Origin: Paraspadella gotoi
Lineage: Eukaryota > Animalia > Chaetognatha
NCBI GenBank assembly: GCA_051294375.1
Contig: JBJCIZ010000122.1
Location: forward strand, 1 to 22,619
Length of the DNA stretch: 22,619 bases
Direction of reading: 5' to 3'
Notes under the pieces: generated by a model
Seen by the model: only the letters and a program-made list of their open reading frames with translations
What the model was told of the DNA's origin: nothing
Databases searched by the model: none
Position numbers and translations under genes: made by a program
Part shown: positions 2,291-22,619 of the stretch, in pieces
How positions within the stretch are numbered: position 1 is the first letter of the stretch
Layout: each line of letters begins with the position of its first letter

Positions 2291-3100
2291 TTAACAACGA
2301 TTTAATTGACATAAATAGTCAGACATGTTTCGGTCTTTCACTTAAGCCTTCATCATGTTTTTGACAATCAATATTTAGTCTCTGTGAAGTAAGTTTTGAG
2401 AGAGGATGAGAGAGAGAGAGAGAGAGAGAGAAAAATTGAGGGAGAGTTTCCAACAAAGAATAATATAAGGAGCAGTGGTCAGATGTGGAGCGACAGCGTG
2501 AAGGAAGGAGAGAGGAAGAAGTAAGTCGTGAAAAATGAAAAAAGAGTGAGAGAGAGAGAGAGAGCAAAGGCAAAAATTTAAACAATACATGAGCAATGTA
2601 CAACAGAGATAAAGTTATTAAGTAAATCTAATACATAAAACTGAAATTAAATGTTAAACAACGGAAATAAATAAGTTAGTAGAATAAAGTGAAATTTGAA
2701 ATAAAAATAAGTGGTGAGGATAGATAAAGTGAAGAAAAGTGAAAGTAAGTAAAGAAAGAGCTCAAAAATAGCTAGCCCCCCCCGGCCGGGCATGGAGGGC
2801 GTTGACGATGAAGGCGGGTCAGTTGGCCTGTCATAAGTTGCTGGAGGGTATATATGTAGAGTTTGTCATGCTGGGATCCGGAAGAGATCCGCCTGGGAAA
2901 ATGCCAAGTGCTACTTGTATATTCCCTTTGGCCTGATAAGCCTGCCAAAGCCCTCTCTCACCATGCGGTGAGGAGAGCAGTTTTCGTGTTCTGGCCTGTT
3001 TTGCTACAGGAGATACAGACTCCTCTCCCCTCCTCCTGTAGCCGTCGTTTTGGGCGCGCTCGGCGCGAGGAGAGTCGCGCCAAGTTGCTACAGCGGCTCA
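2291..3100 (-). mobile_element. Penelope-like/retrozyme element copy A, 5'-truncated (coding remnant, G-run, CT-rich terminal repeat, defective hammerhead)
   Basis: Minus strand reads an 88-codon open frame (3097-2834), a G-run, an AT/CT-rich region, then aTGATGAAGGCTT..AGACCGAAACATGTC (2356-2322, first core C missing) and the tail aaatcgttgttaa. Homologous to 10521-11222. Confidence 0.75.
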
Positions 3101-3122
3101 GAAAGGTTATCGGACGTCCATT

Positions 3123-3606
3123 GCTCATTTTTGAGCTCTTTCTTCTTACTTACTTTCACTTTCTCACTTATCTATCCCTCACCATTTATTTTCTATTTCA
3201 AATTTCACTTATTCCACTAACTTATTTATTCCGTTGTTAACATTTAATTTCAGTTTATGTTTTAAAGATTTACTTAAATGCACACTTATCTCTGTTGTAC
3301 ATTGCTAAATGTATTGTTTAAATTTTGCTTTGCTCTTCCTTCTCGTCTCCACTCTTTCATTTTTCAAAGACTTACTTCTTCCCTCTCCTTACCTTCAGCT
3401 GTCCTCACATCTGACCACTTGTCCCTTATTCTTATTCTTTGTTGGAAACTCTCCCTCAATTTTTTTTTCTCTCTCTCTCGCTCTCTCTCTCTCTCAAAAC
3501 TTACTTTCAACAAGAACTAAAATATTGATTGTCAAAAACACTGATGAAGGCTCTAAGTTGAAAGAGCCGAAACATGTCTAATTTATTTCAATTAAATCGT
3601 TGTTAA
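3123..3606 (+). repeat. Inverted copy of the terminal repeat (pLTR-like) of copy A
   Basis: Reverse-complement match to 2291-2772 along about 480 bp with small indels (gagctcaaaaat / atttttgagctc at the inner ends; ttaacaacgatttaattg / caattaaatcgttgttaa at the outer ends). Confidence 0.92.
3527..3590 (+). ncRNA. Minimal type I hammerhead ribozyme, intact core
   Basis: CTGATGA (3541-3547), extra A, stem II GGCTCT/AGAGCC, GAAAC, AT, GTC with predicted cleavage after 3578. Palindromic ACATGT at stem III. Stem I is poorly paired in this copy. Confidence 0.85.
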
Positions 3607-4013: not shown

Positions 4014-4665
4014 CTAATTCAGTAATAAAAATTCATAAAAATATCAGATGGATTGCTTTCGTTTGACCTGCAATCTCTTCAGATAGGTTTCTTTTATTTT
4101 ATATTATAATTAAACCGATTAAAATGGGGTAGAATGCATCAAATGATTAAAGTGAAACATTTCAGAATCGCCAGGAGCTCAGCTTTCTGAATTTTTAGCC
4201 TATTCTATTTTTTGGCCTATTCTAAAGTTGAATTGAATGACCCTTTTTCTTAAGTGTGGTTATGACACATTTATTTTATTTGTCAATATCATTCATTATT
4301 TCAGCAGATAATTTGTTCATTTTTTTATTTTATCCATAAATTTTATGTCCATTTTTTGGTTGATTAATTTCATTTGTTAATTTATTTCATCTTTTCATTC
4401 ATAAATTTTACCAATTAATTTTTTTCGCCTATTCATTCTTTTATTTTACTTGTTAATTTTATATTGACATTTCTTTCATAACTTTTGCTACTTTCATTCA
4501 TTCATGAATTTCATCAGTTTATTTCATTCGTTCATTTTGCTCATTCAATTCAATTGTACATTTCATTATGTTTCTTTTATAAATTTGGTTACTTCATTTA
4601 ATTCATAAATTCTATCAGTCTATGTATTTTGTTTGTTTAAATCTTTAATGCACTATTCCCTTCAG

Positions 4666-4880
4666 GCGTTCAAGTGGCAACGGAAGACAATGTCCGTAAT
4701 TGGCTGATGGCAATCACGGCCGGGATGTTCATTTATGTGTCTTTGGTGAACATGTTGCCCAGCGTCATGCATAACGGAGTCACAGTCAAAGAATTCTTGC
4801 TTCAAAATCTGGGCATTTGGATCGGAGTCATAATTATGTTGCTCGTAGCCATCTACGAGGAGGACCTTCATGGACACTGA
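4666..4880 (+). CDS. ZIP/SLC39A LIV-1 subfamily metal transporter, last coding exon (TM7-TM8)
   Basis: WLMAITAGMFIYVSLVNMLP and FLLQNLGIWIGVIIMLLVAIYEEDL are typical LIV-1 C-terminal segments. Acceptor ends at 4665; TGA at 4878-4880. Confidence 0.95.
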
Positions 4881-5241
4881 TTCTGAATTTAACTGTATTT
4901 GACTGTAAATGACTGTAAATGATTGTATTTCGCTATGATACTGTTTGTATGTATATTGGCTGTATACGTGGCTGTTGAATAACTAGTTTTTACTCGTTCC
5001 TGGTATGACACGATGCAAGTGAGCGTGGCATAGTGTATGCAGCCATAAAAAAAAAAATCGGTGATTGAAATCGTCATCTCTGAATAAGTTATATAAAACA
5101 TCATGGTTTTCTTCAGATATGAAAAAAAATCAATACAAAATAATATTTGGTAGTTAGGATGTGACTAAATATAGAATAATTAAAAAAAATGATAAGTATA
5201 ATGTACAAAGAATTTCTTATATGGCTCTATACCCAAATATA

Positions 5242-7465: not shown

Positions 7466-7923
7466 ATTTTTTTAAAAAAAATGAAGAATAACTTATAATG
7501 ATATGCATTATCACATATAAATAAATCAGCTAATGTGACCTATTATATATGCAGCACTTTCGCCGAATAATATAATTGGCATGCATGCACATTATAAAAA
7601 AAATTTTGTGTTTTTATTTATTATTGCAACTTTGGACCGGTTGGCCCACTATTGGCAAATTATATCTAAAAATAGGAATTGATAAGAGAGATATAGTCAA
7701 ATTAAACATTACTTTTTTTTGTTATTCTGATAATTTGTACTATTATTAAATTTATAATATTATTTTTAGTGTATATATTTAATCATTTTTAAACTTTTTT
7801 TTTAAATAATAATTATTTGAGTTGTGATAACTATTTATAAATTAATTAATATGCAAATATTAAATTTGACCCTCGGTCTGGTTTCTTCCTAAAAAAAGAA
7901 CAATCTTTTTTTCTCTATCTCTC

Positions 7924-8890: not shown

Positions 8891-9172
8891 CGAAAGCGGC
8901 TCGATCTTTATGCTTTTAAGATTTTTTATCTTAGATTTACATTCGTTTCAAAAAATTAGGAGGGCACAAGTTGTCCTTTATCGTCTCGAGAGACACGTCA
9001 AACCTCTCGTCTACGGCAAGAAACCACCCTCAACGTCTCTTTAATCTTCAACAGAGGACGCCGCTCCCGAGAGATTTCTCCGAGCAACTTAGCCGACGCA
9101 CCAGGCTCATCTGCTTTCGATTTCCCGCCATCGTCACCCGAAATCGGAAATTACGCTAACGTCAACGGCGAA

Positions 9173-10075
9173 ATGGCGGCCCCCACCGGCGCCAACGAAA
9201 CGGAAGTGTTGCGCTCCGCTCTCGCAGCGGCGCTCAAAGCCCTCGAAAAAAAGAACAAGCCCGAACTGCCGACCTTCGAACCCAAAAACATCGACATTTG
9301 GATCCGGAGGGTCGAGGCGACGTTCATCGCGCTAACATCAAGGAGGCGAGCGAAAAGTTCACGCATCTTGAATCGAAAATTAGCGTCGACGCCAACTCTC
9401 GCATAAATGCTTTTCTCTATGGCGATCCTTCTGAAGCAAACTGGACGGAATTCACTGCTTACCTCCATATTCCATAAGGAATACGGAATGACCCCGCGCC
9501 AAAAAGCGGCGCTCCTCGACGGTTTCGGACGCGATGGCCTACGCCCATCTCAACATCTAGCTAGACTAGAAGAAAAGATAAAGCCCATCACCATTGACGA
9601 TATCAAAAAAGAGACGACAGTCAGAGGTTTGCCACTCGAAATAAGGCGCGCCCTTGAAGACATAGTTGATGAATGGACGGCGTCGCAATTTGCCGACGCT
9701 GCCGACAAATTCTTCGATGCAGAGGGACGCCCGACTCTCGCGGCACCAACTTCGACGATCAACGCCGCTATCTCTGACAATCGCGCCGAAGACACGGTGA
9801 GCGGATCGGACAACGAAAACATCGGCATCAACGTCGTTCAGGGACAACGCCGCGACAGAAGTCGCCCGCAGCCATCCAGTTGGCGCCCTGGCACATCGAG
9901 CGCCTCGTCGGCGAACACTCGCCTCCCTAACGGGCGCCTGAAGCTGGTCTGCTGCTGGCACTTGAAGTTCGGTGACGCCGCTTTCCGCTGCGAGCGCGGC
10001 TGTGCTCGTAAAGGCAAACGCCGCGACCGAAAAGAAACCCAGTCAGGAAATGACGCCGCGGGACAGCGCAGGTGA
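9173..10075 (+). pseudogene. gag: Ty3/Gypsy gag, frameshifted
   Basis: N-terminal LPTFEPKNIDIWIRRVEATF, LRPSQHL motif and C-terminal CCWHLKFGDAAFRCERGC knuckle, typical of animal Gypsy gags. Two frameshifts near 9328 and 9465. Confidence 0.8.
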
Positions 10076-10385
10076 ACGCTGTACCCCGCGCCAATAAGGA
10101 CGATTCACCTGACAATTATCTGCTGCATGTAAAGGATGCCAGCGATGGCCGCCAATTGTTGGTCAATGGTGGTGCCCTCATCTCCCTCGTCCCGCCCACT
10201 GCAGCACAAAGAGTAGCAGGACCTGTTGGACCTCAGCTTCAAGCAGCCAACGGAAGCCCAATAAACTCCTATGGCGTCGTACATCGACGAATAGTACTCG
10301 GCTTGAGAGTTTTTCTTTTCGACATGCTCGCGGCCGATGTAACTCAAAATATTTTGGGCGCCGATTTCTTAGCCGTGTTTTACCT
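10072..10385 (+). pseudogene. pol: Ty3/Gypsy pol 5' end (aspartic protease), truncated before RT
   Basis: LLVNGGALISLVP (catalytic D replaced by N), LQAANGSPINSYG and ADVTQNILGADFL. In the -1 frame relative to gag; sequence turns AT-rich abruptly after 10385. Confidence 0.85.
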
Positions 10386-10480
10386 AGGGTTCCGTTAACC
10401 GTTAATTTTTGAGGAACTTCGCTTTAAACCGTATAACTAACGTTTTTAACGGTTAACCGTTAAAATCGGTTAATTTTATA
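10386..10480 (+). mobile_element. Possible terminus of a non-autonomous hAT-like DNA transposon
   Basis: Starts TAGGG exactly where the protease is cut and is followed by clustered AACCG/CGGTT motifs. The other end and a TSD were not seen. Confidence 0.4.
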
Positions 10481-10520: not shown

Positions 10521-11222
10521 AAGACAAGTCTTGATACAGCAACGATTTTATTTTATTGTACAGACAAGTTTCGGCTTTCATTCAAGCCTTCATCAGTGCT
10601 TTGACAATTCACAATTTTCATGTTTTTCCAAATTAACTTTGGAAGAGAGAGAGAGAGAGAGAGAAGAGAATAGAGAGAGAAGAAATGGCCAACAAAGATA
10701 TGAGACAGGACAGTGGTGAAATGTGAGGACAGGTTTAAGTTAGTAGAGAGAGAGAGAGAGAGAGGAATGTGAGGGAAAAGAAATTAAATTTGTGAATGAG
10801 GGAGAGAGAGACAGAGAAGCAGAGGTTAACATTTGGTAAGAAGAGTTACATTAGAAAATGTACAATGATAAATTTAATAAATAAGTAGACAGACTTAAAC
10901 AAACTAAAATATTTAAATTAATTCAGATAAATTAATTAATAAAGGAGTGAAGTTTAGATGAAATTGAAATAAAGATGTTGAGGGATAGGTAAGTGAAAGA
11001 GTAGAGAAAAATATAAGAAAAAGAAAAGAAAAAGCTCAAAATGAGCTGCCCCCCCCCCGGGTCAACAATGGGGGATGCTGACGATGTGGTCGGGTCATTG
11101 GTTTGTCATAGGCTGAGAGGCTATTGTGGTGGAGTGCGACATGGACGGGTCCGGTAGAGACCCCAGGCGGAAAGAGGCCAAGTGCAACTCGAATATCTCT
11201 CAGCGCTGATAAACCTGCCGGC
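10521..11222 (-). mobile_element. Penelope-like/retrozyme element copy D, 5'-truncated, abutting the BEL LTR
   Basis: Same order of parts as copy A: coding remnant (11222 to about 11100), G-run, CT-rich region, motif cagtggtgaaatgtgaggacag, hammerhead and tail. Confidence 0.8.
10555..10608 (-). ncRNA. Minimal type I hammerhead ribozyme, intact core with bulged stem I
   Basis: Minus strand reads ATTGT-caaa-GCA-CTGATGA-A-GGCTT-gaatga-AAGCC-GAAAC-TT-GTC-TGT-ACAAT. Stem I is GCA:TGT plus ATTGT:ACAAT. Confidence 0.88.
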
Positions 11223-11735
11223 AGACTTGGCTCTCCCGGCGTCGCGAGGTAGGCGTGGCTCGTCGTGAGAGAGACGTAAACGTAAATCTGACGGATCTCG
11301 AACGTCGAAAATATCTCGAAGAGAAAAGACTCGAAAACGGAACCAAATAATAAGACGAAATATAAATGTAAATGGAATATATCGAGCAGTAAGTCAAGCA
11401 GAAAATCCGACGTAAATCAAGCAAAAAATCGTACAAAAATCCGGAGAAAATAGTCGACGTCCGTAGAAATATCCGTGAGAAAATAGTTTGTGTCCAAAGA
11501 AAATCGTAAGCAAATCGTGATCAAAGTGAACTAAACTCGGTCTGTCTGGTCTTGTCCAAATAAAGTATTAGAGAGAAAGGGCGGGAGAAACCGGTAAGAG
11601 AGAGAGAGAAAGAGAGAGAGTGCGAATGAGTCGTACGGTCAATAACAGTCCGGTCAACTGGTCAGTCCGACGAACTCGGTCTCTCGTCCTTCGTCTGTCA
11701 ATCTCTTGGTCGGTCTGTCAGGGCCTTTCTCTACA
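11223..11735 (-). repeat. 3' LTR (about 520 bp; terminal 7 nt missing)
   Basis: Starts TGTAGAGA at 11735 on minus. 11223-11256 matches 22587-22619 with one indel. The 5' LTR ends TCTCTACA, giving an 8-bp terminal inverted repeat. Confidence 0.92.
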
Positions 11736-11745
11736 CCCCCGCCTC
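11736..11745 (-). promoter_or_regulatory. Polypurine tract
   Basis: GAGGCGGGGG immediately before the TG of the 3' LTR. Confidence 0.85.
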
Positions 11746-12837
11746 AGCTAGGAAACTCCGCTGACCATCTATAAGGCCTCGCAGGACCGACGGTCACATG
11801 GCGAACTTGTCTGACCTATCAACCCCAGATCGTTTGACTAGAATAAGTAAAAGACAATGACTAGAATATTTTTCCTGAGTAAATGGCCCGTTAAGTCGTT
11901 CTTCTCAGTTTTTTTGAAGGCGGTTGATACTGTCAGGGATGCGTCGGCCACCATCGGATTTCCTTTTGGTGTCGGTTGACGTAGTTAGCTGTTCATATAG
12001 GAGGGAAAGGAAAAAACACAGCAGACACAATTTCTTAAGCATTTCTCTTCATTCGTTATTCTTTCACATTCGCTTTTCCCATTATTTCCAATTTCATTAT
12101 TCATGTTTTATTTTATGAAACATCACTCCCCTGTTAATCTTTCCGGCGTCCATTGACGCCGGTCCCGTCGCTGACTTTTGTTTGAGGTTCAAGTGGACGT
12201 GACGCTGTTGGAGATCTGAGACTTAAAAGAAAGTTGTGGGGAGGGGATTCGAATTTCGGGATTTGTCTGATGGAGTTTAAACTCCGTCCCAATTGTTTAT
12301 ATAAATACGTGATAATTATTATGTATATATTTATATGAGTGTTCTCTATCGCTTTTTTATTAAAATCAAATCGTGAATTGTTATTGTTAGATTCATTTTT
12401 TTTTTTAAATAAATTAATAAATTAAAATATGTTTTCCTTTAATCATTTTTAAAATCGTCAAAGGGTTTATTAATTCTTAAATCATGATTCTTTTTCTTCC
12501 AGATAAATTGGTACTCCCACAATACGTATATCTTTTTTCAAAATCTCCAAACAATAATACTGCTATATGCAAATTTCATTTAAAGTCATACTATGAATTC
12601 AGAATGGAGGGCCCGTTGGGCCACGTCCAGAGTGGAGAGTCGCATCCAGATCCTCCGGCGGTTTTGAAGTACATGTAAAAAGGGGGCAGAAAAGAAAACA
12701 AATATCTTAATTAAATTAATGAAGTGTTTATTTAATCAATATTCTAATTAAAATTTAATTTCAGATTCGGAATTCGAATCCATCATCATAATAAAGGTAG
12801 AACAGGCTTTTTCTCATTTGAGATCACTGAAGCGTAC

Positions 12838-13537
12838 CTTAGGGATTCTCGGTGGATGAAATCTTGCACGTGCATCGCGTATCATGTCCCAACAAGCCTG
12901 CCCTCTTGTTGGTCAACCACCTTTAAGGATCAATGACCCTTCGGCCGAGAAGGGATGCCTCCTCTTCTGGGCCTAGGTTTATATCAAAAGGTGTTTCTCC
13001 CGGCTGAAGGTCAAGGATGGCGCTCTCACGATCGCCTTCATCCATCTCTTCTTCATCGTCTCCTTCATCTCCATCTTCTTCTTCGACGTGTCCTCGTCTT
13101 CCGAAGGGTCGTCAATTCGATCATTCCAATTTCTTGATTCTTTATTTTTTCCTTTGCCTTTTCCTTTTCCGGATTCATTCTGATCGCTTGTGCCTTCGCC
13201 GGGATCAGTCACCGTTTCTACCACACGTTCTACATTTTCACGAATGTCTCGGCTCCGGAATTCAACTTCTGTGCTCGCACTGCCAAATTTTTGTAGTCGG
13301 TTATTTTTTTTTACTTCTTCTCGAATCCTGTTGAGGGTTTCATTGCCTAAACGTTCAAAAACTGAAGTTCTTTTTCAATTTTTCCGGTAATGGTTTCCCG
13401 TTGTTTTAATCCGGTTTTGTTTTTTCTCATGTCTTCTGCTTCAAGGATGCCATCAACTTCGCCGGGGTGGAGATTGTAGTTGGGTCCCACGTTGATAATT
13501 TGACGGGCGGAGAAAGCCTTTCATGATCTTGAGATGT
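12838..13537 (-). pseudogene. Probable disrupted continuation of the accessory ORF
   Basis: Coding-like, charged segments in alternating frames (e.g. LHPGEVDGILEAEDMRKK, IRENVERVVETVTDPGEG, ILDLQPGETPFDINLGPEEE) broken by stops and indels. Ends at a donor-like AAG|GTACGC at 12837. Confidence 0.5.
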
Positions 13538-14575
13538 TTAAAAATCGGGATCCGCCGCGCCCTCTGCCGCGTCCTCGAACGTATACGGCGATGCGGGGGG
13601 CAGTTCCTTTTCTGATCCGGAGCCATTTCCAAATTCACACGTGTGGCCGCATCCAACTCCAGAACTGGCCGATTGGCCACGTTCAGAGCAGAGGGCCCGT
13701 TGACTATGTCCAGGACGGAGGGCCTGGCGGCCACGTCCTCTCCCTGGAAGGTTCACGGAGTTGCGGGTTTTCGCTGAAGGTCCACTGACTCCAGGGTCGG
13801 GTCCTATGGAAATTTCCCTCGCTATCTCCGGTTGTTTCTGCGCGAGCATAAGTCTCCTTAGTCGTCGTTTTTCCGTTTTCGTTTTGTAGTCCATCAAGCT
13901 ATTCGAGGTTGTTGGAGGGGCCCGGTTTGACGATCGAGTAGAAGACGGTGTTGGAGATGGAGCCGGCCTTGAACTTGAAGACGGGATTGGAGTTGGAGCC
14001 TGGATTGGTCTTCCTCCAGATCTTTGTCCTGAAGTTGTCGCCGTAACCGCTCTCCTGTTTTCGACCACTCTTGCTGCAATCCGCGCCTTTTCCACGATAT
14101 TTGGGAGTTCCTCTGAGGCCTTCTTTATGTTTGGTCGCTCATTTCTCATGAAGTCGTTTACAACAATATCCGGTTCGGAAGAAGGGGGCTCAGAATGTCC
14201 TTTGAAGCGAAACATGTCTCGTCTGAGTTGAGCAAATTTATAGCATCCTCCATGTTTCTGCCACCAACGATGGAGGAGCTCGCCTGGCTTCGCGGGAGCA
14301 TCCAAAACGACGATGTCAAACATCTGCTCGCACCAAGACATCAACAAAAAATCACATCCTTCTACAGTTTCATCTGGGAGGAGACCATAGACAGCCTCTT
14401 CGTTTGCGAATGAAGCCTTCACAAGCCAAACACGCTTTCCTTCATTGAGAGTCGCCGTCAGGAAAAATTCGATGGCGACAGTGCGATTTCCGCCGATCAT
14501 TCCAGCGCCGCCTCGAATATCAACGTCGCGTCTGATGCCGACAAAGGAATCGTAATTGTTGACATTGGCACTCAT
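13538..14575 (-). CDS. Accessory ORF of the BEL/Pao element (345 aa, unknown function, not env-like)
   Basis: ATG at 14575 lies about 45 nt after a strong acceptor ccccatctttcAG (14622-14621). Globular-looking N-terminal ~125 aa, then a Ser/Pro-rich linker and a basic patch KTKTEKRRLRR. No signal peptide or TM segment visible. Confidence 0.7.
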   Translation of the reverse strand: MSANVNNYDSFVGIRRDVDIRGGAGMIGGNRTVAIEFFLTATLNEGKRVWLVKASFANEEAVYGLLPDETVEGCDFLLMSWCEQMFDIVVLDAPAKPGELLHRWWQKHGGCYKFAQLRRDMFRFKGHSEPPSSEPDIVVNDFMRNERPNIKKASEELPNIVEKARIAARVVENRRAVTATTSGQRSGGRPIQAPTPIPSSSSRPAPSPTPSSTRSSNRAPPTTSNSLMDYKTKTEKRRLRRLMLAQKQPEIAREISIGPDPGVSGPSAKTRNSVNLPGRGRGRQALRPGHSQRALCSERGQSASSGVGCGHTCEFGNGSGSEKELPPASPYTFEDAAEGAADPDF

Positions 14576-14663
14576 TCTCAGTTTTTTATGTGTTTATCAC
14601 AGATTTCGTAAGAATATCACCTGAAAGATGGGGAAATCGATTTAAAGTTAGTCTTAAAGTTGA

Positions 14664-14694
<31 letters not shown>

Positions 14695-15779
14695 TTTAAA
14701 AGGGTCTCAAAAATTCTAACTGTGCAAGAATCAAGTCTTTTGATCGAAGTTAAGGATCCACAGTTCACACGCATCGTCGCCACAATGGAACCCAGTTCCG
14801 ACGTTCGTTCTCTAAGAAAAACAAAATAATAGTTAGAATTTACAAAATTTACAATGTCAGGTATATCATCATTCGTAAATCGTCATTCATAATCTTCCTA
14901 TAAGAGGATGTTTTATGTTTAAAATAATTTTAATAATAGTCTGAAAATAAACTGAATAATAAAAGGAATAAAATAAAAAAATCTAGTCATTAACTAAATA
15001 ATTTTAAATTTAAAAAAAAAACATAAATTCCATTAATTAGAATGACAAGCAGTGTCATATGCGCATCTGCTAATGTGACTCATAGGCGGTACCTACTAAA
15101 TATTCGGCAGTTACACCAAATTAATTTAAGCACATTATCATTCAAAGGGAAAAAAAAAATTTTATTTACTATTGTAGCTTTGGACCGGTCGGCCCACTAT
15201 TGCCAGATAATATCTAAAATAGTAACCGAGAAGAGATATAATTAAATAAAACAACTTATTTTGTTATTATAATGATTTGTACTATTATTAAATTAATAAA
15301 AAAATATAAATCTATTTACAAAAAATATTTATTTATTTTTCTTTAAGTTTATAATTGTTTGAATCGCGTTAAATCTTTATAAATTAGTTGAATATGCAAA
15401 TATACAATTTGACCTCGGTCTGGTTTCTCCCTAAACAAAAGATATTTCTGAAATTTAATTCAAGATTAAAATTTGTAAAATGAGGAAATAAAATTTATTT
15501 GATAAGTAAAAAGAAATGAAAATATTTAGAAGTCGAAAATATCATAGTCGTTAACTGAGTATTTTCGACTAAATATTTGTTTATAGAGACTAATTTTTGA
15601 CCATTATTATTGAAATAGTTTAACCCTATCGCGAGACGGAGTTTTCATTTCATACAATCAATCAATCTCATTCTTTTTCATTAATATGCGAATGGTGAGG
15701 TCTTCAACCTCATTTTGAACTTGGTGAACAAAAGACTTCAGTCTTATTTCAATTAAAAAAATAGAAAGTTAATTGAAGC

Positions 15780-18700
15780 TTAATCACACTCTAACAAAAC
15801 AATTTTATTTCTATCACGTTCTAAATATTTGTTTGCGGTTTTGATAACCACTCTTCTTACGTGACCATTCTCATTGTCCACTCTTTCCACTCTTCCAAGT
15901 TTCCATTCATCCCTCGGTAAATTTTCGTCAACTATCAAAACTAGCTGACCTATTTTTACATTCGGTTCTGTTTTCTGCCACTTTTCTCGGGCTTGGAGGG
16001 TCAATACATACTCATCTCTCCATCTCACCCAGAATTCATCAATAAGATCACGTGATTTAGTCCATTCAGCTCTAAATTCATCCCCTGACCAAGATTCTGG
16101 TGGAATAATCGCTGGTCGTGAACCAGTGAAAACTCCTGGATAAAGAATATCGGCTGGGCTGATTGCGTTCAAGTCTGTTACGTCGTCACTTTCTTGTGTA
16201 AGGGGGCGTTTGTTTATAATGCCCTCTACCGCGACGAGTACAGTTGTAAACATTTCCAAAGTTAAGTTTTCTTTTTTCAAAACAGAATCGAGATGGCATT
16301 TTGCTAGTTTCACCATTCGTTCCCAGACGCCGCCCCAATGGGGGGCGTTGGGGGGACCAAAAACCCATTCAAATCCATATTCTAATAATCTATTGCTCAT
16401 TTGTTCATTTTGCCAACTTTCAATCGCCTTTTGGATTTCGAGATTCGCGCGTCGAAAATTCGTTCCATTATCGGAGTAGAATTTTCGTGATCCTGGGCGA
16501 CGGGAGTTGAATCGAATTAATGCATTTATAAAGGATGAGCTTGATATATCATCTAAAACTTCAAAATGCACACCTCTCATTTTTAAACAAGTAAAGAGAG
16601 CAACCCATCGTTTATGCACTGCTCGGCCTGTAATTTTTACTTTATAAGGGCCAAACAAATCCACTCCGGTTACTTCGAAAGGCGAGCCGCGATGGAGCCG
16701 GTCCTCAATAAGTGGCGCCATTTTTTGTATTGCCGGGGGTTTGAAGTTCTTCTGACAACCAATACATTTCCCAATAACTTTTTTCGTGGTTCTACGGAAA
16801 CATTGGATGTGAAATCGTTTTCGTAATTCACTAATTACGTGATTTGTGCTGGCGTGACATTCGGAAATATGAATATGACGAATCAGATCGTGAACTATAG
16901 AATCATCCTTAGGCAGGATGATAGGATGTTTCATGTCATAATCATAACTGGCATTACACAATCTACCACCAACTCTCATCAAACCACTCTTGTCCAAAAA
17001 CGGGTTCAGTTGTCTAAGAATTGACTTTAAGTTTAACTCTTTTCTCCCGCTTGGTTCATTAATGTCTTTTTCTCTAAGTTCTTTTATTTCTTTTTCGAAA
17101 TAAGCATTTTGCAGTGCCTTAATCATTATTCGTTCAGCATTATTAATGTCGTCCAAAGTGAGTCTCATCTCTTTTACATTTAAAATTTCTTTTTTTGCTT
17201 TTCTTTTTATTGCCTTTTCAACTAAGGCAATTCGTCTGAGTTTTTGATAATACCGCTCAGTGTACTTACCAAGCTTAATTGCCCAGTGGTTGATAGGGCT
17301 ATCATCTTCACGTTCAAACATTTTCGCATCTACAGAATTGACATTTAAATCATATGGAAGTGGATCCATTGAGATTTTCTGTTCTGGCCATTCCTCTTCA
17401 GGAAGGCATAAAAAATCAGGACCTTTGTGAAAACGTTGCCATTTTTCATCGTCAGCTGATAGGCCACGGCTGCAGTCATCGGCTGGGTTCATTTTTGTCG
17501 GAACATATCGCCAATCTTCGATATTACTTAGTTCGTGAATTCGAGATAAGCGGTTTTTGAAAAATACCACAAATCGTTTTGATTTGTCTCGGATCTGTTT
17601 CAAAACAGTCTCACTATCAGTCCACATTACAATTCTTAAAAATTTATCATTCGTGCATTCTTCAACAATCAATTGACGGATTTCACAAGCCAATCTTGCC
17701 GCCGTCAATTCAAGTTTTGGAATGGAGTTGTGGTGACCCGTTTTTATCGAATCTAAGGGTGTGACCTTAGACTTTGATAATAGAAACGCAACGTGAGGAT
17801 CGCCCCCGCCTTTTGGGCACGCCCTCCGGTAAACGGAGACTCCATATCCCTCCATTGAAGCATCACAAAAGATGTGAAGTTCTGCAGGTTCATTGGTAGT
17901 TGCTGGAGTGGCAACCCATCGTGGGATTTTAACTTCCTCAAGCTTTGGAAGCTGTTCTTTCCAAGCATCAACTTCTTTTTGGAGATCATTCGGCAAGGGA
18001 GCATCCCAAGCCATCTCCAAGGCTGTTGCCTTTTGAAAAATCATTCTTCCCTTTATTGTAAAAGGGGAAACAAGACCAAGTGGATCATACAAGCTTGCAG
18101 TCAAGGAAAGGAGTTGTCTCCTTGTTTTGCAAGGTTTCGCCAATTTCTCTTTGTTGATTTTAAAGTGAAAATGGTCATCACCAAAATCATAACCAACACC
18201 CAGGATTTTGTCAGTTACCACAAGAGGTTGACATAACCGATCTGGTTCTAAAACAAGAGTTGGAGGACCATCTCCAATCTCACCAAGCACACTGGGATCT
18301 GAGCACTTCCACTTGCCCAGTTCAAAGCCACCTCTGGCCATTGCTTCAGTCAGACCTTCCTTCAACTTCCTGGCTGTCTCAGCATCAGGAATGGAGCTGA
18401 TGAAGTCATCAACATAGAAAGCTCGAAGGATGGCTTCAATCACATCGTCAGGGAAGACTCCAACAAGGGACTCAGCATGGTAGTGGAGTGCATAGTTTGC
18501 AACAACTGGAGATGAAGTGGCACCAAAGATGTGGACCTTCAACTCAAACAAAGCAAGCTTTGTGCATTCTTTGTCTTCCCACCACCAATATCGGAAGACA
18601 TGGACATCATTTTCGTCAACAAAAATCTGGTGAAAGAACATTTTAATGTCGGCATGAATAGCAATCTCATGACGTCGGAAACGAAGCAAGATGCCAATCA

Positions 18701-19781
18701 AGCTGTTCATTAAATCAGGGCCCGTTAAAAGCTGGTCATTGAGACATTTTCCTTTCACCTTTGCTGCAGCATCATGACAAACTCTCACTTTGTTCTTGTC
18801 CTTACGGACAACAACAAGCAACGGTAAGTTCCACTGAGGAATGCCATCCTCAGTCTCAACATGTTCTACTTTCTGGACATTCCCAGCATCAACCTCTTTC
18901 TTAATCTCTTCCCAAACCTTAGCTCGGGCCTCAGGATCTTTGTTGAGCTTTTTCATTAGGGAATTTAGTCGATTTAAAGCCATTCCATTTGAATCGCGTT
19001 GATTCAAGATCTCGGCTGCTTTCTTTCTCCCTTCCTTCCAGGGTAACCCTACTACATAATGGCCTATATCAGGGTCAAACCTAATGGATGATCTCAACTG
19101 ATGCATAGCATATTCATCATCTAGAGAAGGTTGGAGTTTCATAGTGGGTTTTGTTTCAAAATCCTGATTAAAGAGTCGTTTTATATCCTCTCTAATTGTC
19201 TGCTCATCTTCTTCCACAAATTCTGCAGTCATACGAGCACAATCAATCGTTTCTTCATTTACTCCTTGGCGTGGTCCAATCAAAGTCCAGCCAAAGTCAG
19301 TTTTCATGCCAATAGGAAGATTTTCATCACCCCGTCTAATCTCACCATTAGTCCAAGTGTAGGCTAATTGAGCGGGCAAGAGAACTTCAACTTCCTTATG
19401 GTCCAATTCATAAAATTTGATGCCTTCAAGATGGGGCATCCCTTGAATCTCTTCATTTGTTGGTGGAAAATCATCTTCGGTGGAAAGTAGATTCCCTACC
19501 ACACATTTTTTCATAGTAATGGAAAAATCGCTTTCTAAGTTTTCGAGGTTTACATCACAAAGATCCTTCTCACAAACAGAAACTGAGTCATAAGATCGTA
19601 TTTTCATAGTTGCTTTCGTTGTTTCAATTCCCATGTCCTTAGCAGCGCTGGTCTTAATCACACATCTGTTGCACCCTGTATCAATCATCGCCCATGTGGG
19701 CTTTTTTCTACCATTCCATTCAATCACTACAGGAACAACAGGCCGATATGATGACTCACCGGGGGCAGAAGCCACAGCTAG
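15780..19781 (-). CDS. pol: BEL/Pao Pol polyprotein (PR-RT-RNase H-IN), intact
   Basis: PR AMIDTGC. RT RVCHDAA, LLTGPDL, ADIKMFFHQI, FGATSSP, FYVDDF. RH LHIFCDAS, IPKLELTAA, WTDS, NPADDCSRG. IN HHCC, GVDLFGP, SDNGTNF, WGGVWERMV. The frame is open directly after the gag stop; the ORF track start at 19775 is a GTG. Confidence 0.98.
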   Translation of the reverse strand, partial: LAVASAPGESSYRPVVPVVIEWNGRKKPTWAMIDTGCNRCVIKTSAAKDMGIETTKATMKIRSYDSVSVCEKDLCDVNLENLESDFSITMKKCVVGNLLSTEDDFPPTNEEIQGMPHLEGIKFYELDHKEVEVLLPAQLAYTWTNGEIRRGDENLPIGMKTDFGWTLIGPRQGVNEETIDCARMTAEFVEEDEQTIREDIKRLFNQDFETKPTMKLQPSLDDEYAMHQLRSSIRFDPDIGHYVVGLPWKEGRKKAAEILNQRDSNGMALNRLNSLMKKLNKDPEARAKVWEEIKKEVDAGNVQKVEHVETEDGIPQWNLPLLVVVRKDKNKVRVCHDAAAKVKGKCLNDQLLTGPDLMNSLIGILLRFRRHEIAIHADIKMFFHQIFVDENDVHVFRYWWWEDKECTKLALFELKVHIFGATSSPVVANYALHYHAESLVGVFPDDVIEAILRAFYVDDFISSIPDAETARKLKEGLTEAMARGGFELGKWKCSDPSVLGEIGDGPPTLVLEPDRLCQPLVVTDKILGVGYDFGDDHFHFKINKEKLAKPCKTRRQLLSLTASLYDPLGLVSPFTIKGRMIFQKATALEMAWDAPLPNDLQKEVDAWKEQLPKLEEVKIPRWVATPATTNEPAELHIFCDASMEGYGVSVYRRACPKGGGDPHVAFLLSKSKVTPLDSIKTGHHNSIPKLELTAARLACEIRQLIVEECTNDKFLRIVMWTDSETVLKQIRDKSKRFVVFFKNRLSRIHELSNIEDWRYVPTKMNPADDCSRGLSADDEKWQRFHKGPDFLCLPEEEWPEQKISMDPLPYDLNVNSVDAKMFEREDDSPINHWAIKLGKYTERYYQKLRRIALVEKAIKRKAKKEILNVKEMRLTLDDINNAERIMIKALQNAYFEKEIKELREKDINEPSGRKELNLKSILRQLNPFLDKSGLMRVGGRLCNASYDYDMKHPIILPKDDSIVHDLIRHIHISECHASTNHVISELRKRFHIQCFRRTTKKVIGKCIGCQKNFKPPAIQKMAPLIEDRLHRGSPFEVTGVDLFGPYKVKITGRAVHKRWVALFTCLKMRGVHFEVLDDISSSSFINALIRFNSRRPGSRKFYSDNGTNFRRANLEIQKAIESWQNEQMSNRLLEYGFEWVFGPPNAPHWGGVWERMVKLAKCHLDSVLKKENLTLEMFTTVLVAVEGIINKRPLTQESDDVTDLNAISPADILYPGVFTGSRPAIIPPESWSGDEFRAEWTKSRDLIDEFWVRWRDEYVLTLQAREKWQKTEPNVKIGQLVLIVDENLPRDEWKLGRVERVDNENGHVRRVVIKTANKYLERDRNKIVLLECD

Positions 19782-22256
19782 TCAGCTAGATAAGGGAGGA
19801 GTTGCGGTGGCAGAATCTTGTTGGCGAGGGCCTGGAGAAGATGGCGTTCTCGCAGCAGCTCCCGTGAGTGGAGTCATATTGAGGCGTTGATTTTGAGGCG
19901 GCCGGGTCGGGGTTCGTGCCGGGGAGTTGGCGACCACCTTAGCATACGTCGTTGGGTCCTGTCTTGGAGAAAAAGCTGTTATACCATGCACTACTGTATT
20001 ATGTGGACCAGTACACACGAGACAGCATTCTTTGTCCCAAGTACATTGCTTAGCAAGATGATTTTTGCCCAAACAACGAAAACATAATCCATTCTTTTTC
20101 ATGACATTGGCTTTACCTTCTTTTGACAGTTTCAGAAAAGATTTGCAAGCCTCAAGCATATGCCATTCATTGCAGTATTCACAAGCATGTTCCAACACAT
20201 CACTAATATGATTCAATGCAATATTGGTTTCATCAACTTTCACCTTGCGAGTATGTCGAGATCCAGATGGTGGAGATCCTTGGGTGACCTTTAGGGGCCT
20301 AACCTTCGTCACTGATCCCCCGCCGTTTACATTCTGGCGCGACTCATCGGCGTTGATGGCGGCGACGTCGACCGTAACCTTTTTCTTTTGCCTCGCATAG
20401 GCGCCTTTCTCGAAGAGAATCCTTTTCTTAAGGTAAGCAATAAAGTCATCAAATTTCAACTTTTTTCCGTGGTCGTATTGGTAGTCGGCGTCTTTTTTCG
20501 CGAAATCTGTCTTTAAAAAATCACATCTTGTTTCCAAAATCTCATTGATCACCGTATCTTTATCAAGGTCTGATCCTTTGCCATTCTTGTCAGCCATAGC
20601 TTTAACATTCTCAAGTTCCGTGGTCAGCTTGTCAAGTTCGGTCTTGTTGCCTGGTAAGATCTTTGGTTTGGATAGAATATCCTTCAGCAAGTCATGAACA
20701 GTAGCATTCTTCTTTCCAAATTCCTTCCAAAGAGTTTCTAAAGCTTCTTTGATAGCCTCAGTGTGACCAGATTCTTTCATAAGGAATTTCGACAATTTCA
20801 TTTGAGCTAAACCAGTAAACCAGTGGTTAAGTTCTTGTAACTTGACTTCGTCCGTAGCTTCGGCCTGACACATGGTTGTCTCATATGCACGCATGTGTAA
20901 CTCAAAAACAGGTCCAGCATTCTTATCTTCACCTGTAAATGGTTTCTTTGGCCTTCCTTGTTCAACATTTCGTAGCATGGAATCCTTTTTTGATTGCTTT
21001 ATCCAAGCAGCCATGATTGAATCGTCAAAACCTGATGTTGCTCGGGCTGGTGATGAAGTTGGAGCAGGAGCAAGTGTTGGAGTAGGAGCTGGAGAAGGAG
21101 CGGGTTTTGTAGTTGGTTTTGAGGTTGGAGGAGCCGGATCGAATGAAATACTGCGAGTAGAGGTCCCTCCAAAACTGACTCGGCGTTTCTTCTCTCTGTC
21201 TAGTTCCTTAGTAAGGGTTTCAATGGTTTTTTCAAGGTCGTGAATTCTGCTTTCCTGCTTCTTCAGTTCCACTCCATGATTGATGCAACAGTCTTCTAAT
21301 TGGGTCATGGTTTCAATTTGTCCAGGTCGAAATTCATTGAAGGCGTTTTCCATGCATTCCATTCGTCCATGAAGAGATTGGAAGGCTCTTCTCATTTCCA
21401 TTAATTCATTTCTCAGTTGGCCATTCTCTACAGACAAAGATTGCCGTTCCTTTTTGACAGTGCTCGTCCTTGCATTGGCACCAAAGAATGAGCGGGCCTC
21501 ATTGAAAGATTGAGTCTTCTTTTCAAGCTTCTCATTGATGAGCTTCATCTCTCTTTCTTTGACTTCATTCATGTGAGCCATTTCCTTTTCAATTTCTTGT
21601 TTTCTTTTTTCCATTTCACGTCCATACTGCTCTTCCTTCCTTTTCTTCTCAGCTTTGATGAGAGTCAACTCACGTTCTTCCTTGTTCAGGTTGCGAAATG
21701 TTTGATCATCCCAAGACAGGTCCAATTCTTGGAGGTCGTAGTCAGGTCCGGAATCCTCATCATCGTTAGCAGCAACATTCGTTCCATTCACAACAGCATC
21801 ATATGCCCTATCAATAAATCCCTCAAGATCATTGGAATCACCATTCACCTGCTTCACTGCCGTTTCCGGGTTTTCCGAAGTCGAATCATTATCGTCTTCT
21901 TCACTTTGCTCTTCATCCAATTCCTTTTGTGGTTCGTTGGCCTCATTCACGGGTGCGCGGGCGTTACCATCTCGACGTCGACGGATGGTAACGTGCCCCA
22001 TTTGAGTGCTTTCGTCAAGCATCCGGCGTTGTATCGAGCCTTGGGGGTAGGATATTTTTACCATCTTAATCTGAGAGATTTTCTCCATGACGAGTGGCTC
22101 CAATCCCTTGGCCATGGCGACTGCCTCCGGGGTGCCGAGTTCGTGATAACGCTCAATCAGATTGGTAAGAGCTTTGACGGCATCATGTATCCCCTCAGGA
22201 GTAAAATCGTCCATGTTGATCTTTCCGCGCTCCACGATAAGAGATTCAATCGACAT
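19782..22256 (-). CDS. gag: BEL/Pao Gag (824 aa), intact
   Basis: Coiled-coil N-terminal half, Pro-rich linker, capsid-like region, and triple knuckle CEYCNEWHMLEAC / CFRCLGKNHLAKQC / CLVCTGPHNTVVH. Confidence 0.95.
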   Translation of the reverse strand: MSIESLIVERGKINMDDFTPEGIHDAVKALTNLIERYHELGTPEAVAMAKGLEPLVMEKISQIKMVKISYPQGSIQRRMLDESTQMGHVTIRRRRDGNARAPVNEANEPQKELDEEQSEEDDNDSTSENPETAVKQVNGDSNDLEGFIDRAYDAVVNGTNVAANDDEDSGPDYDLQELDLSWDDQTFRNLNKEERELTLIKAEKKRKEEQYGREMEKRKQEIEKEMAHMNEVKEREMKLINEKLEKKTQSFNEARSFFGANARTSTVKKERQSLSVENGQLRNELMEMRRAFQSLHGRMECMENAFNEFRPGQIETMTQLEDCCINHGVELKKQESRIHDLEKTIETLTKELDREKKRRVSFGGTSTRSISFDPAPPTSKPTTKPAPSPAPTPTLAPAPTSSPARATSGFDDSIMAAWIKQSKKDSMLRNVEQGRPKKPFTGEDKNAGPVFELHMRAYETTMCQAEATDEVKLQELNHWFTGLAQMKLSKFLMKESGHTEAIKEALETLWKEFGKKNATVHDLLKDILSKPKILPGNKTELDKLTTELENVKAMADKNGKGSDLDKDTVINEILETRCDFLKTDFAKKDADYQYDHGKKLKFDDFIAYLKKRILFEKGAYARQKKKVTVDVAAINADESRQNVNGGGSVTKVRPLKVTQGSPPSGSRHTRKVKVDETNIALNHISDVLEHACEYCNEWHMLEACKSFLKLSKEGKANVMKKNGLCFRCLGKNHLAKQCTWDKECCLVCTGPHNTVVHGITAFSPRQDPTTYAKVVANSPARTPTRPPQNQRLNMTPLTGAAARTPSSPGPRQQDSATATPPLSS

Positions 22257-22384
22257 CGTATGAAATCAAGAAAAATAAAATTGGATGAGAGAAAGCAAAG
22301 GTAAGTTGGAATCAATCAATTCAAATAAAGTTGAGTTTAAATTTTAAATAAAAAGTTGCTTAAAGATTTTGGCAAATTCGTTGT

Positions 22385-22385
<1 letters not shown>

Positions 22386-22438
<53 letters not shown>
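22386..22438. repeat. (CAAT)n microsatellite, about 13 units, in the element 5' leader
   Basis: Read directly. Confidence 0.95.
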
Positions 22439-22439
<1 letters not shown>

Positions 22440-22568
22440 CTTTGATCCGATTTACCTTGGATTGATGTCGGTTCCGATCCAAAGGTTGTCAGTAACTAGT
22501 TTGGAAGACGGCAAAAAATCCAAATAAAATCAATCAAATGAACCAAACTTACCTGTTGATGCAATGGT

Positions 22569-22579
22569 TATTTTCTCAC
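22569..22579 (-). promoter_or_regulatory. Non-tRNA primer binding site candidate (GTGAGAAAATA)
   Basis: Directly follows the LTR-terminal CA, has no TGG, and is complementary to the LTR 11-mer at 11475-11485. Confidence 0.6.
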
Positions 22580-22619
22580 TGTAGAGAGACTTGGCTCTCC
22601 CGCGTCGCGAGGTAGGCGT
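22580..22619 (-). repeat. 5' LTR, U5 end (partial)
   Basis: Plus strand TGTAGAGAGACTTGGCTCTCC..., matching the 3' LTR end at 11223. Confidence 0.92.

Follow-up and report, generated by a model that had tools for sequence, protein, structure and literature searches.

In the Drosophila element copia and in the plant Ty1/copia shGAG RNAs, an intron takes out pol and the spliced RNA codes for Gag; these elements have one open reading frame (ORF), and the splice is needed to make the stop (PMC5580714). The Ty3/gypsy element Cer1 of C. elegans provides another precedent, i.e., CERV, a non-env orphan ORF located between pol and the 3' long terminal repeat (LTR). There, gag-frame exons are joined to the ORF, a nuclear localization signal (NLS) is present, and export of the genomic RNA was shown; Cer1 itself has no stop between gag and pol (PMC10309623). 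For the BEL/Pao elements, the profile issued by the ICTV (the international committee for virus taxonomy) states that their gene expression and their replication are poorly understood, and it names only gag, pol, and env (PMC8742986). We analyzed a stretch of 22,619 nucleotides (nt) of the chaetognath Paraspadella gotoi (contig JBJCIZ010000122.1, hereafter the window), whose minus strand carries an LTR retrotransposon with gag, pol, a 4-kb post-pol region, a polypurine tract (PPT), and a 3' LTR. This BEL/Pao element is real and unusual. Our preferred reading, with a probability of about 0.5, is that its 3' accessory region contains one orphan non-env ORF (ORF3) and two GT..AG introns, observed in a probable RNA run, and that the ORF3 product is likely a soluble protein, which would be a regulator of the element's RNA. 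An initial annotation, made from the letters alone, had proposed a multi-exon accessory gene at this place; it was right on the spliced non-env accessory region and wrong on most of the exons.

On sequence criteria, the element belongs to BEL/Pao (Belpaoviridae), because its pol has the Pao-type domains PF05380 (expectation value E 1.7e-40) and PF18701 (E 1.9e-23), and its Gag a triple Cys-His box (boxes at amino acids (aa) 692, 725, and 744), which is a hallmark of BEL/Pao (PMC554778). The Pfam profiles PF00078, PF13650, and PF17921 also match pol, and motifs place its domains in the order protease-reverse transcriptase (RT)-RNase H-integrase. LTRs and a PPT of about 10 nt are present, as in BEL/Pao, the window including only 40 nt of the 5' LTR. 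Its last 33 nt (22587-22619) match 11223-11256 at 97%, and the end of the 5' LTR repeats, in inverted form, the start of the 3' LTR. The primer-binding site of BEL/Pao is one for tRNA-Arg or tRNA-Gly; no tRNA gene was found in the 22,619-nt window. The ICTV profile gives, as a descriptive range and not as a demarcation rule, gag and pol that are continuous or overlapping and a length of 4.2-10 kb (PMC8742986). Here, on the contrary, an in-frame stop separates gag from pol, and the estimated length is 11,884 nt (~11.9 kb); this departure is that of a variant and not of a separate family. As initially described, the 4-kb region lies inside the element, between the pol stop and the PPT followed by the LTR, and its GC blocks (0.44-0.51) alternate with AT blocks (0.24-0.33). 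It is not confined to one copy, contigs of other copies connecting it to the LTR.

Nine of the 11 sequencing runs listed contain the stretch, and four of these nine were analyzed: X1, X4, and X5 (DNA), and X7. The RNA status of X7 is the tool's guess, no run being on record as RNA; the mapped stretches exclude the leader at 22371-22619, and contig depth was not taken as copy number. The table of joints has six rows, three of them only in X7; two of these three are GT..AG on the element strand, and the third is an LTR variant. The joint of intron A (14811/19760) is carried by one X7 contig of depth 3.8, with 103 letters on its short side. Its donor, 22 nt past the gag stop, agrees with the consensus at 8 of 9 positions, and its acceptor has a clear pyrimidine tract. 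The joint of intron B (12221/12592), also found only in X7, has weaker support, with 21 letters on one side; a second X7 contig stops exactly at 12592, where the DNA contigs continue. Neither joint occurs in X1, X4, or X5. Because two canonical joints occur there, we argue that X7, a single run, contains spliced RNA. The retention of introns stated initially is supported for intron B (12591-12222), which is both spliced and unspliced in X7, where contig 12253-12621 crosses its donor. Two DNA joints, 13396/21579 and 13069/21663, were rejected as short low-complexity matches.

The splice sites actually used differ largely from those first proposed. All seven AG and both GT motifs are located where the initial annotation placed them. 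Splice-like motifs as such are not above chance: five acceptor-like sites are found on the element strand versus four on the opposite strand, block shuffles give 2.5 +/- 1.6 (36 of 300 reach five), and there are 15 donor-like sites versus 20.5 in shuffles. Our own acceptor rule recovered three of the seven acceptors. One acceptor, 14813, is used exactly; 12217 itself is unused, the neighboring AG (12223-12222), 5 nt away, being used instead. Sites 11990 and 11839 are crossed unspliced by X7 contig 11666-12142; 15432 and 15215 have no joint and lie inside the skipped intron A; and at 14622 (14622-14621), an X7 contig stops at 14624 without a joint. Neither donor is used, 12837 being crossed by contig 12592-13199 and 15169, without joint, lying inside intron A; the actual donors, 19759 and 12591, had been missed. 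The post-pol region is spliced, at one predicted acceptor and beside another, and the multi-exon coding structure is not supported: its upstream "exons" lie in a high-copy repeat within intron A, and in-frame stops bar their fusion to ORF3.

This repeat was recognized by both similarity and depth. Positions 15160-15442 match 7612-7899, outside the element, at 78%, a match that extends to 15001-15442 versus 7466-7899. The summed contig depth in X1 reaches 12,848-63,108 over 14950-16065 versus 82-91 over most of pol, a contrast that marks a high-copy repeat occupying ~0.85 kb of the region. The sites 15432, 15215, and 15169 are all in this repeat, and the GT at 15169 is not kept in the 7466-7899 copy. 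The repeat matches extend into the last pol codons (loose ends 15818 and 15836). The repeat may have taken its spacer from such an element, a reading at least as compatible with these matches as a simple insertion.

Two stops bear on how ORF3 could be expressed. We considered a Gag-ORF3 fusion through the observed joint and rejected it: the frame is the same, yet the gag frame, read across intron A, meets a stop after 14 codons. The ORF3 frame, read from the acceptor at 14621, is closed by a stop after seven codons. The sequence holding these stops matches X1 and X7 contigs without differences. Since in-frame stops bar fusion through either acceptor, ORF3 looks here like a single coding exon, which would start at its own AUG.

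As first stated, ORF3 (14575-13538) has 345 codons. No open frame of at least 345 codons was found in 1000 base shuffles of 14700-12800, the longest having 195. Among the differences listed inside ORF3, 13 of 26 are synonymous, whereas ~27% are expected (p = 0.01), with 6 of 11 in aa 100-130 (p = 0.03) and 6 of 14 in aa 265-295 (p = 0.23); this count, from listed differences of several pooled copies, is a lean and not a ratio of nonsynonymous to synonymous rates (dN/dS). Neutral evolution, one of the outcomes that the initial annotation had named as telling against it, is less favored by the pooled count, and aa 265-295 taken alone are not significant. ORF3 is, in our estimation, fairly likely to be a selected protein. 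Its hydropathy maximum is 1.19 (19-residue window), its downstream pieces do not exceed 0.74, its N-terminus is without the hydrophobic core of a signal peptide, and it has six cysteines. This hydropathy scan agrees with the earlier statement that ORF3 is without signal peptide or transmembrane (TM) segment and is not a typical env. The NLS-like patch that had been noticed corresponds to a basic stretch at aa 236-262 (26% K+R), which has no match to K[KR]x[KR].

Searches with ORF3 returned nothing from Pfam (best E 0.07), PHROGs, the PDB sequences (best E 1.1), the ESM Atlas (best score 0.77), or a metagenome DNA scan. No match was obtained in the 189-604 aa and 605-2000 aa classes of a set of 5.8 billion proteins, shorter proteins not being searched, or with aa 1-185 by phmmer against 1.84 billion representatives. 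An AlphaFold single-sequence model of aa 1-160 had a predicted local distance difference test score (pLDDT) of 33, too low for a fold search. A 160-nt part of ORF3 (13647-13805) is common to a more abundant relative at ~89%, with divergence on both sides, and could be a conserved motif or an RNA element. A 58-nt internal duplication (12655-12598 versus 13740-13682) is borderline (score 45, shuffle maximum 47); one of its copies ends 6 nt before the intron B donor.

The ORF continuation had been described as disrupted. Protein-like pieces do extend to 12920 in alternating frames, and the breaks are likely assembly indels. Indeed, ten one-base indel sites relative to the window, common to contigs of two to four runs and with few substitutions, lie at ~12.9-13.65 kb, and six gaps for one substitution were counted in 736 nt versus no gap in 4555 nt of pol and gag. 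That indels concentrate in the tail, with few substitutions and a gap-free pol and gag, suggests unpolished assembly errors and probably not decay. At 13374-13345, a downstream frame opens with the word SVFERLG; VFxRLG-like words occur in RNA-binding proteins and plant gypsy Gag.

The only family with enough flank for comparison is formed by relatives L001 and L003, which are 99.7% identical to each other and have 42-44% pol identity to the element. Their post-pol region exceeds 3 kb, with AT/GC alternation, and carries, behind a pyrimidine-tract acceptor, a 464-codon frame that is basic, rich in arginine and serine (RS), acidic-tailed, of low complexity, and non-membrane. A 21-codon exon is predicted in phase with this frame (two-exon gene predicted at 3812-6079 of L001), and the multi-exon idea may hold for this relative, though it fails here. 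The contig ends before a PPT or LTR, and the frame may lie inside its element. A VEFF/IEFF word common to ORF3 and the small L001 exon was discarded as chance (101 of 500 shuffles). Tandem 80-nt repeats lie near 3995-4156 of L001.

At the gag/pol junction, the gag stop TGA is followed by CTAG, and gag and pol share a frame with this single stop between them, a signal that the initial annotation had overlooked. UGACUA(G) is a type II stop-codon readthrough context, described in alphaviruses and human genes (PMC13517186); here, the identical heptanucleotide would link gag to pol, two ORFs that share a frame. Six related loci (L001-L006) were retrieved, five of which (L002-L006) show the junction, and the identical seven letters stand there in frame in four: L002 (position 168), L003 (3775), L004 (2068), and L005 (342). 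Best-segment identity is 36-41% in these relatives, and 42% for L003; in L006 (29% identity), gag-pol is fused without a stop. CTAG follows 8 of 2044 TGA in the window and loci, five of the eight being these junctions. Among the 120 pol relatives listed, all with PF05380, the top 39 are pol-sized (857-1473 aa), and fused proteins of at least 1700 aa appear from rank 40. A tree of 54 of 62 rows, for which eight rows of low coverage were removed and L005 and L001 were not included, groups the 36 pol-only rows in one clade (support 0.74, midpoint root). Because relatives have the same junction letters and the pol-only rows form one clade, the gag stop is a clade feature and not a lesion. Given the signal and its conservation, predicted readthrough of UGA-CUAG very probably yields a little Gag-Pol; as Tca2 of Candida shows, the flanks of a gag-UGA-pol junction may not suffice for readthrough (PMC2194720). 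This UGA-CUAG clade of BEL/Pao, known mostly from metagenome contigs, is possibly a finding in itself. The contig with the L006 gag-pol is assigned to a bacterial metagenome-assembled genome, a bin that likely contains eukaryotic contamination, and no relatives were found in viral contigs.

We propose that three RNAs would be made. The unspliced genomic RNA would give Gag and, by readthrough, a little Gag-Pol. The pol-less RNA spliced from 19760 to 14811, whose joint was observed once, would probably make Gag alone, as in Drosophila copia; unlike in copia and the shGAG elements, gag already stops here, and the intron ends in an accessory region with a further ORF. A third RNA, predicted and with somewhat less than an even chance, would join one of the leader donors (22552 or 22455) to acceptor 14621, so that 14575 would be the first AUG and ORF3 protein would be produced; there is no ATG in the leader or LTR, and these donors agree with the consensus at 9 of 9 and 8 of 9 positions, respectively. 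Of the jobs considered for ORF3, basic and acidic and mostly disordered, the first-ranked would be one in RNA export or splice balance, as for CERV or Rev. We propose this role because a genomic RNA with strong unused splice sites needs an export route for intron-containing RNA; it rests on this need and on the analogy with CERV rather than on sequence, and we hold it as doubtful. CERV and ORF3 are alike as non-env orphan ORFs with pol on one side and the 3' LTR on the other, whereas the element studied here is of the BEL/Pao superfamily, its gag fusion is stopped, and no homology to CERV was seen.

Several points weigh against our preferred reading. The splicing evidence consists of single contigs from one run of guessed RNA status, and one side of joint B amounts to just 21 letters. 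No observed joint puts ORF3 first on its RNA. The loose ends listed include no leader joint, the leader lying outside the mapped stretches, and the X7 contig end at 14624 matches the intron side over four letters and is predicted by neither leader exon end. Relatives have no strong donor after the gag stop (best 5-7 of 9), and the pol-skipping splice may be peculiar to this element's family. No stable structure, which can stimulate type II readthrough from the 3' side, was found within 150 nt after the UGA (z = -0.9). A pattern scan of ORF3 as read in the window gave no classical NLS or clear nuclear export signal. No search found an ORF3 homologue, and the L001 frame resembles ORF3 no more than expected by chance (a score as high in 342 of 500 shuffles). 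The synonymous count pools copies and takes listed rows only, with p = 0.23 for aa 265-295 alone. Not every copy keeps the ORF3 frame, because, in X1, X5, and X7, another copy has lost a net 5 nt across 13910-14189, and all four runs show a gap of 33 nt at 13830-13864.

That out-of-frame copy suits the view that the region is a long 3' untranslated region (UTR) of captured host and repeat DNA, with ORF3 as a passenger of the gag RNA, decaying or untranslated, and splices that do no more than shorten this RNA. The ~0.85 kb of high-copy repeat points the same way, as do the place of ORF3 behind gag and an upstream AUG in the sole joint A RNA and the lack of a homologue among 1.84 billion representatives. 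We nevertheless consider it improbable, since the 345 codons of ORF3 far exceed the 195 of the longest open frame in shuffles, the listed differences show a synonymous excess, a relative at 42-44% pol identity has a long post-pol frame of similar make-up, and the 160-nt ORF3 part is common to a more abundant relative whose sequence differs on either side of it. On the other hand, ORF3 could be a real accessory protein with another job (anti-silencing, LTR transactivation, or particle trafficking), splicing mainly setting Gag levels. Its linker, basic stretch, and acidic pieces would suit many nuclear or nucleic-acid-binding proteins equally. Rotifer LTR elements carry non-env ORF3s of varied roles (PMC5408684), and Drosophila MDG1 elements a nuclear-staining sORF1 (PMC11952523). 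The bdelloid ORF3s are family-specific and typically expressed from spliced messages; they include GDSL esterases, DEDDy nucleases, and TM proteins, and none of those described there matches ORF3 (PMC5408684). ORF3 gave no sign of an enzyme, zinc finger, or DNA-binding domain, and splicing creates a specific need to export unspliced RNA, so that we regard this other job as unlikely.

A divergent envelope or small fusogen has been largely refuted for the frames read and is now highly improbable. ORF3 does occupy the place of env, for which F-like, gB-like, or phlebovirus-like genes are known in BEL/Pao elements (PMC13524379, PMC9094657), and a hydrophobic run (hydropathy 1.7) occurs in an upstream frame of 62 codons. 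This run is a translated poly-T tract, and its frame has no MGxxxS/T motif as in sORF2 (PMC11952523); the short ORF with TM segment, usually with MGxxxS/T, that characterizes sORF2/FAST proteins was not found. By hydropathy, neither ORF3 nor its pieces have a signal peptide or TM segment, and six cysteines were counted. Compared with the BEL/Pao elements that have env, i.e., Tas, Cer7, roo, and those of mosquitoes with gB-like env (PMC554778, PMC13524379, PMC8742986), ORF3 is without an env hallmark.

The soluble RNA regulator that we prefer would fit in a broader and more speculative picture, which we think unlikely as a whole: an undescribed BEL/Pao clade would have become "complex" independently of retroviruses and Cer1, with UGA-CUAG for Gag-Pol, a copia-like splice for Gag, and a fast-evolving orphan, in a spliced 3' region, as a Rev-like switch for the nuclear exit of intron-containing genomic RNA. 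The element suggests three features absent from the ICTV picture: a readthrough signal extending across the clade, a splice that skips pol, and a third gene that is not env. Should this gene serve to export unspliced RNA, a Rev-like function would have been invented independently once more. In titles and abstract starts, with few subscription papers among them, no BEL/Pao element came up for which readthrough of UGA-CUAG, splicing around pol, or an accessory gene other than env is described. Gao and colleagues (2003, RNA) reportedly described a stop-separated gag and pol in a few elements, perhaps one of the BEL group, and Bowen and McDonald (1999) are said to have noted an extra region in Cer7. 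BEL/Pao sequences in the supplements of one paper may include this clade (PMC3118150).

Table 1. Features of the BEL/Pao element in the window, in the order of the element strand.
Feature	Positions	Strand	Remarks
5' LTR, 3' end	22580..22619	-	ends TCTCTACA; remainder outside window
Leader without ATG	22257..22579	-	candidate donor-like sites 22552 (9/9 consensus) and 22455 (8/9)
gag	19782..22256	-	triple Cys-His box; tblastn similarity to gag of L003-L006
UGA-CUAG, gag/pol in frame	19778..19784	-	predicted readthrough signal
pol	15780..19781	-	protease, RT, RNase H, integrase; intact, 1333 codons; stop 15782-15780
Intron A	14812..19759	-	4948 nt, GT..AG; removes all of pol except 7 codons
High-copy repeat	15001..15860	.	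overlaps last pol codons and AT-rich spacer; ends approximate
Exon between introns A and B	12592..14811	-	continuity inferred from separate X7 contigs (14709-14811, 14456-14624, 14160-14427, 13910-14189, 13201-13482, 12592-13199); 14625-14692 without X7 cover; upstream ATG at 14774
ORF3	13538..14575	-	345 codons as read in window, last ~35 unreliable; N-terminal part with hydrophobic core (aa 1-135), then a linker of Pro/Ser/Thr, the basic stretch, and a tail rich in Gly/Arg
Broken ORF3 continuation	12920..13537	-	basic and acidic protein-like pieces; frames alternate
Intron B	12222..12591	-	370 nt, GT..AG; in presumed 3' UTR; spliced and retained forms
PPT	11736..11745	-	
3' LTR	11223..11735	-	starts TGTAGAGA, without ATG; last ~7 letters replaced by another repeat

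The 3' LTR has a high summed contig depth in the DNA runs. Over 11750-14200, with the 3' accessory region and the LTR, several variant contigs were obtained, and over gag-pol single long contigs; copies without pol or recombinants may be present. At 2291-3606 and 10561-11219 lies a repeat whose inverted arms measure 480 nt, and the final bases of the 3' LTR are lost to a relative of this repeat. On the plus strand, 8960-10398 holds a broken gag-protease fragment of another LTR element, Ty3/gypsy-like by eye. Host exons of a ZIP zinc transporter, at 591-896 (PF02535) and 4664-4883, flank a long repeat-filled intron.

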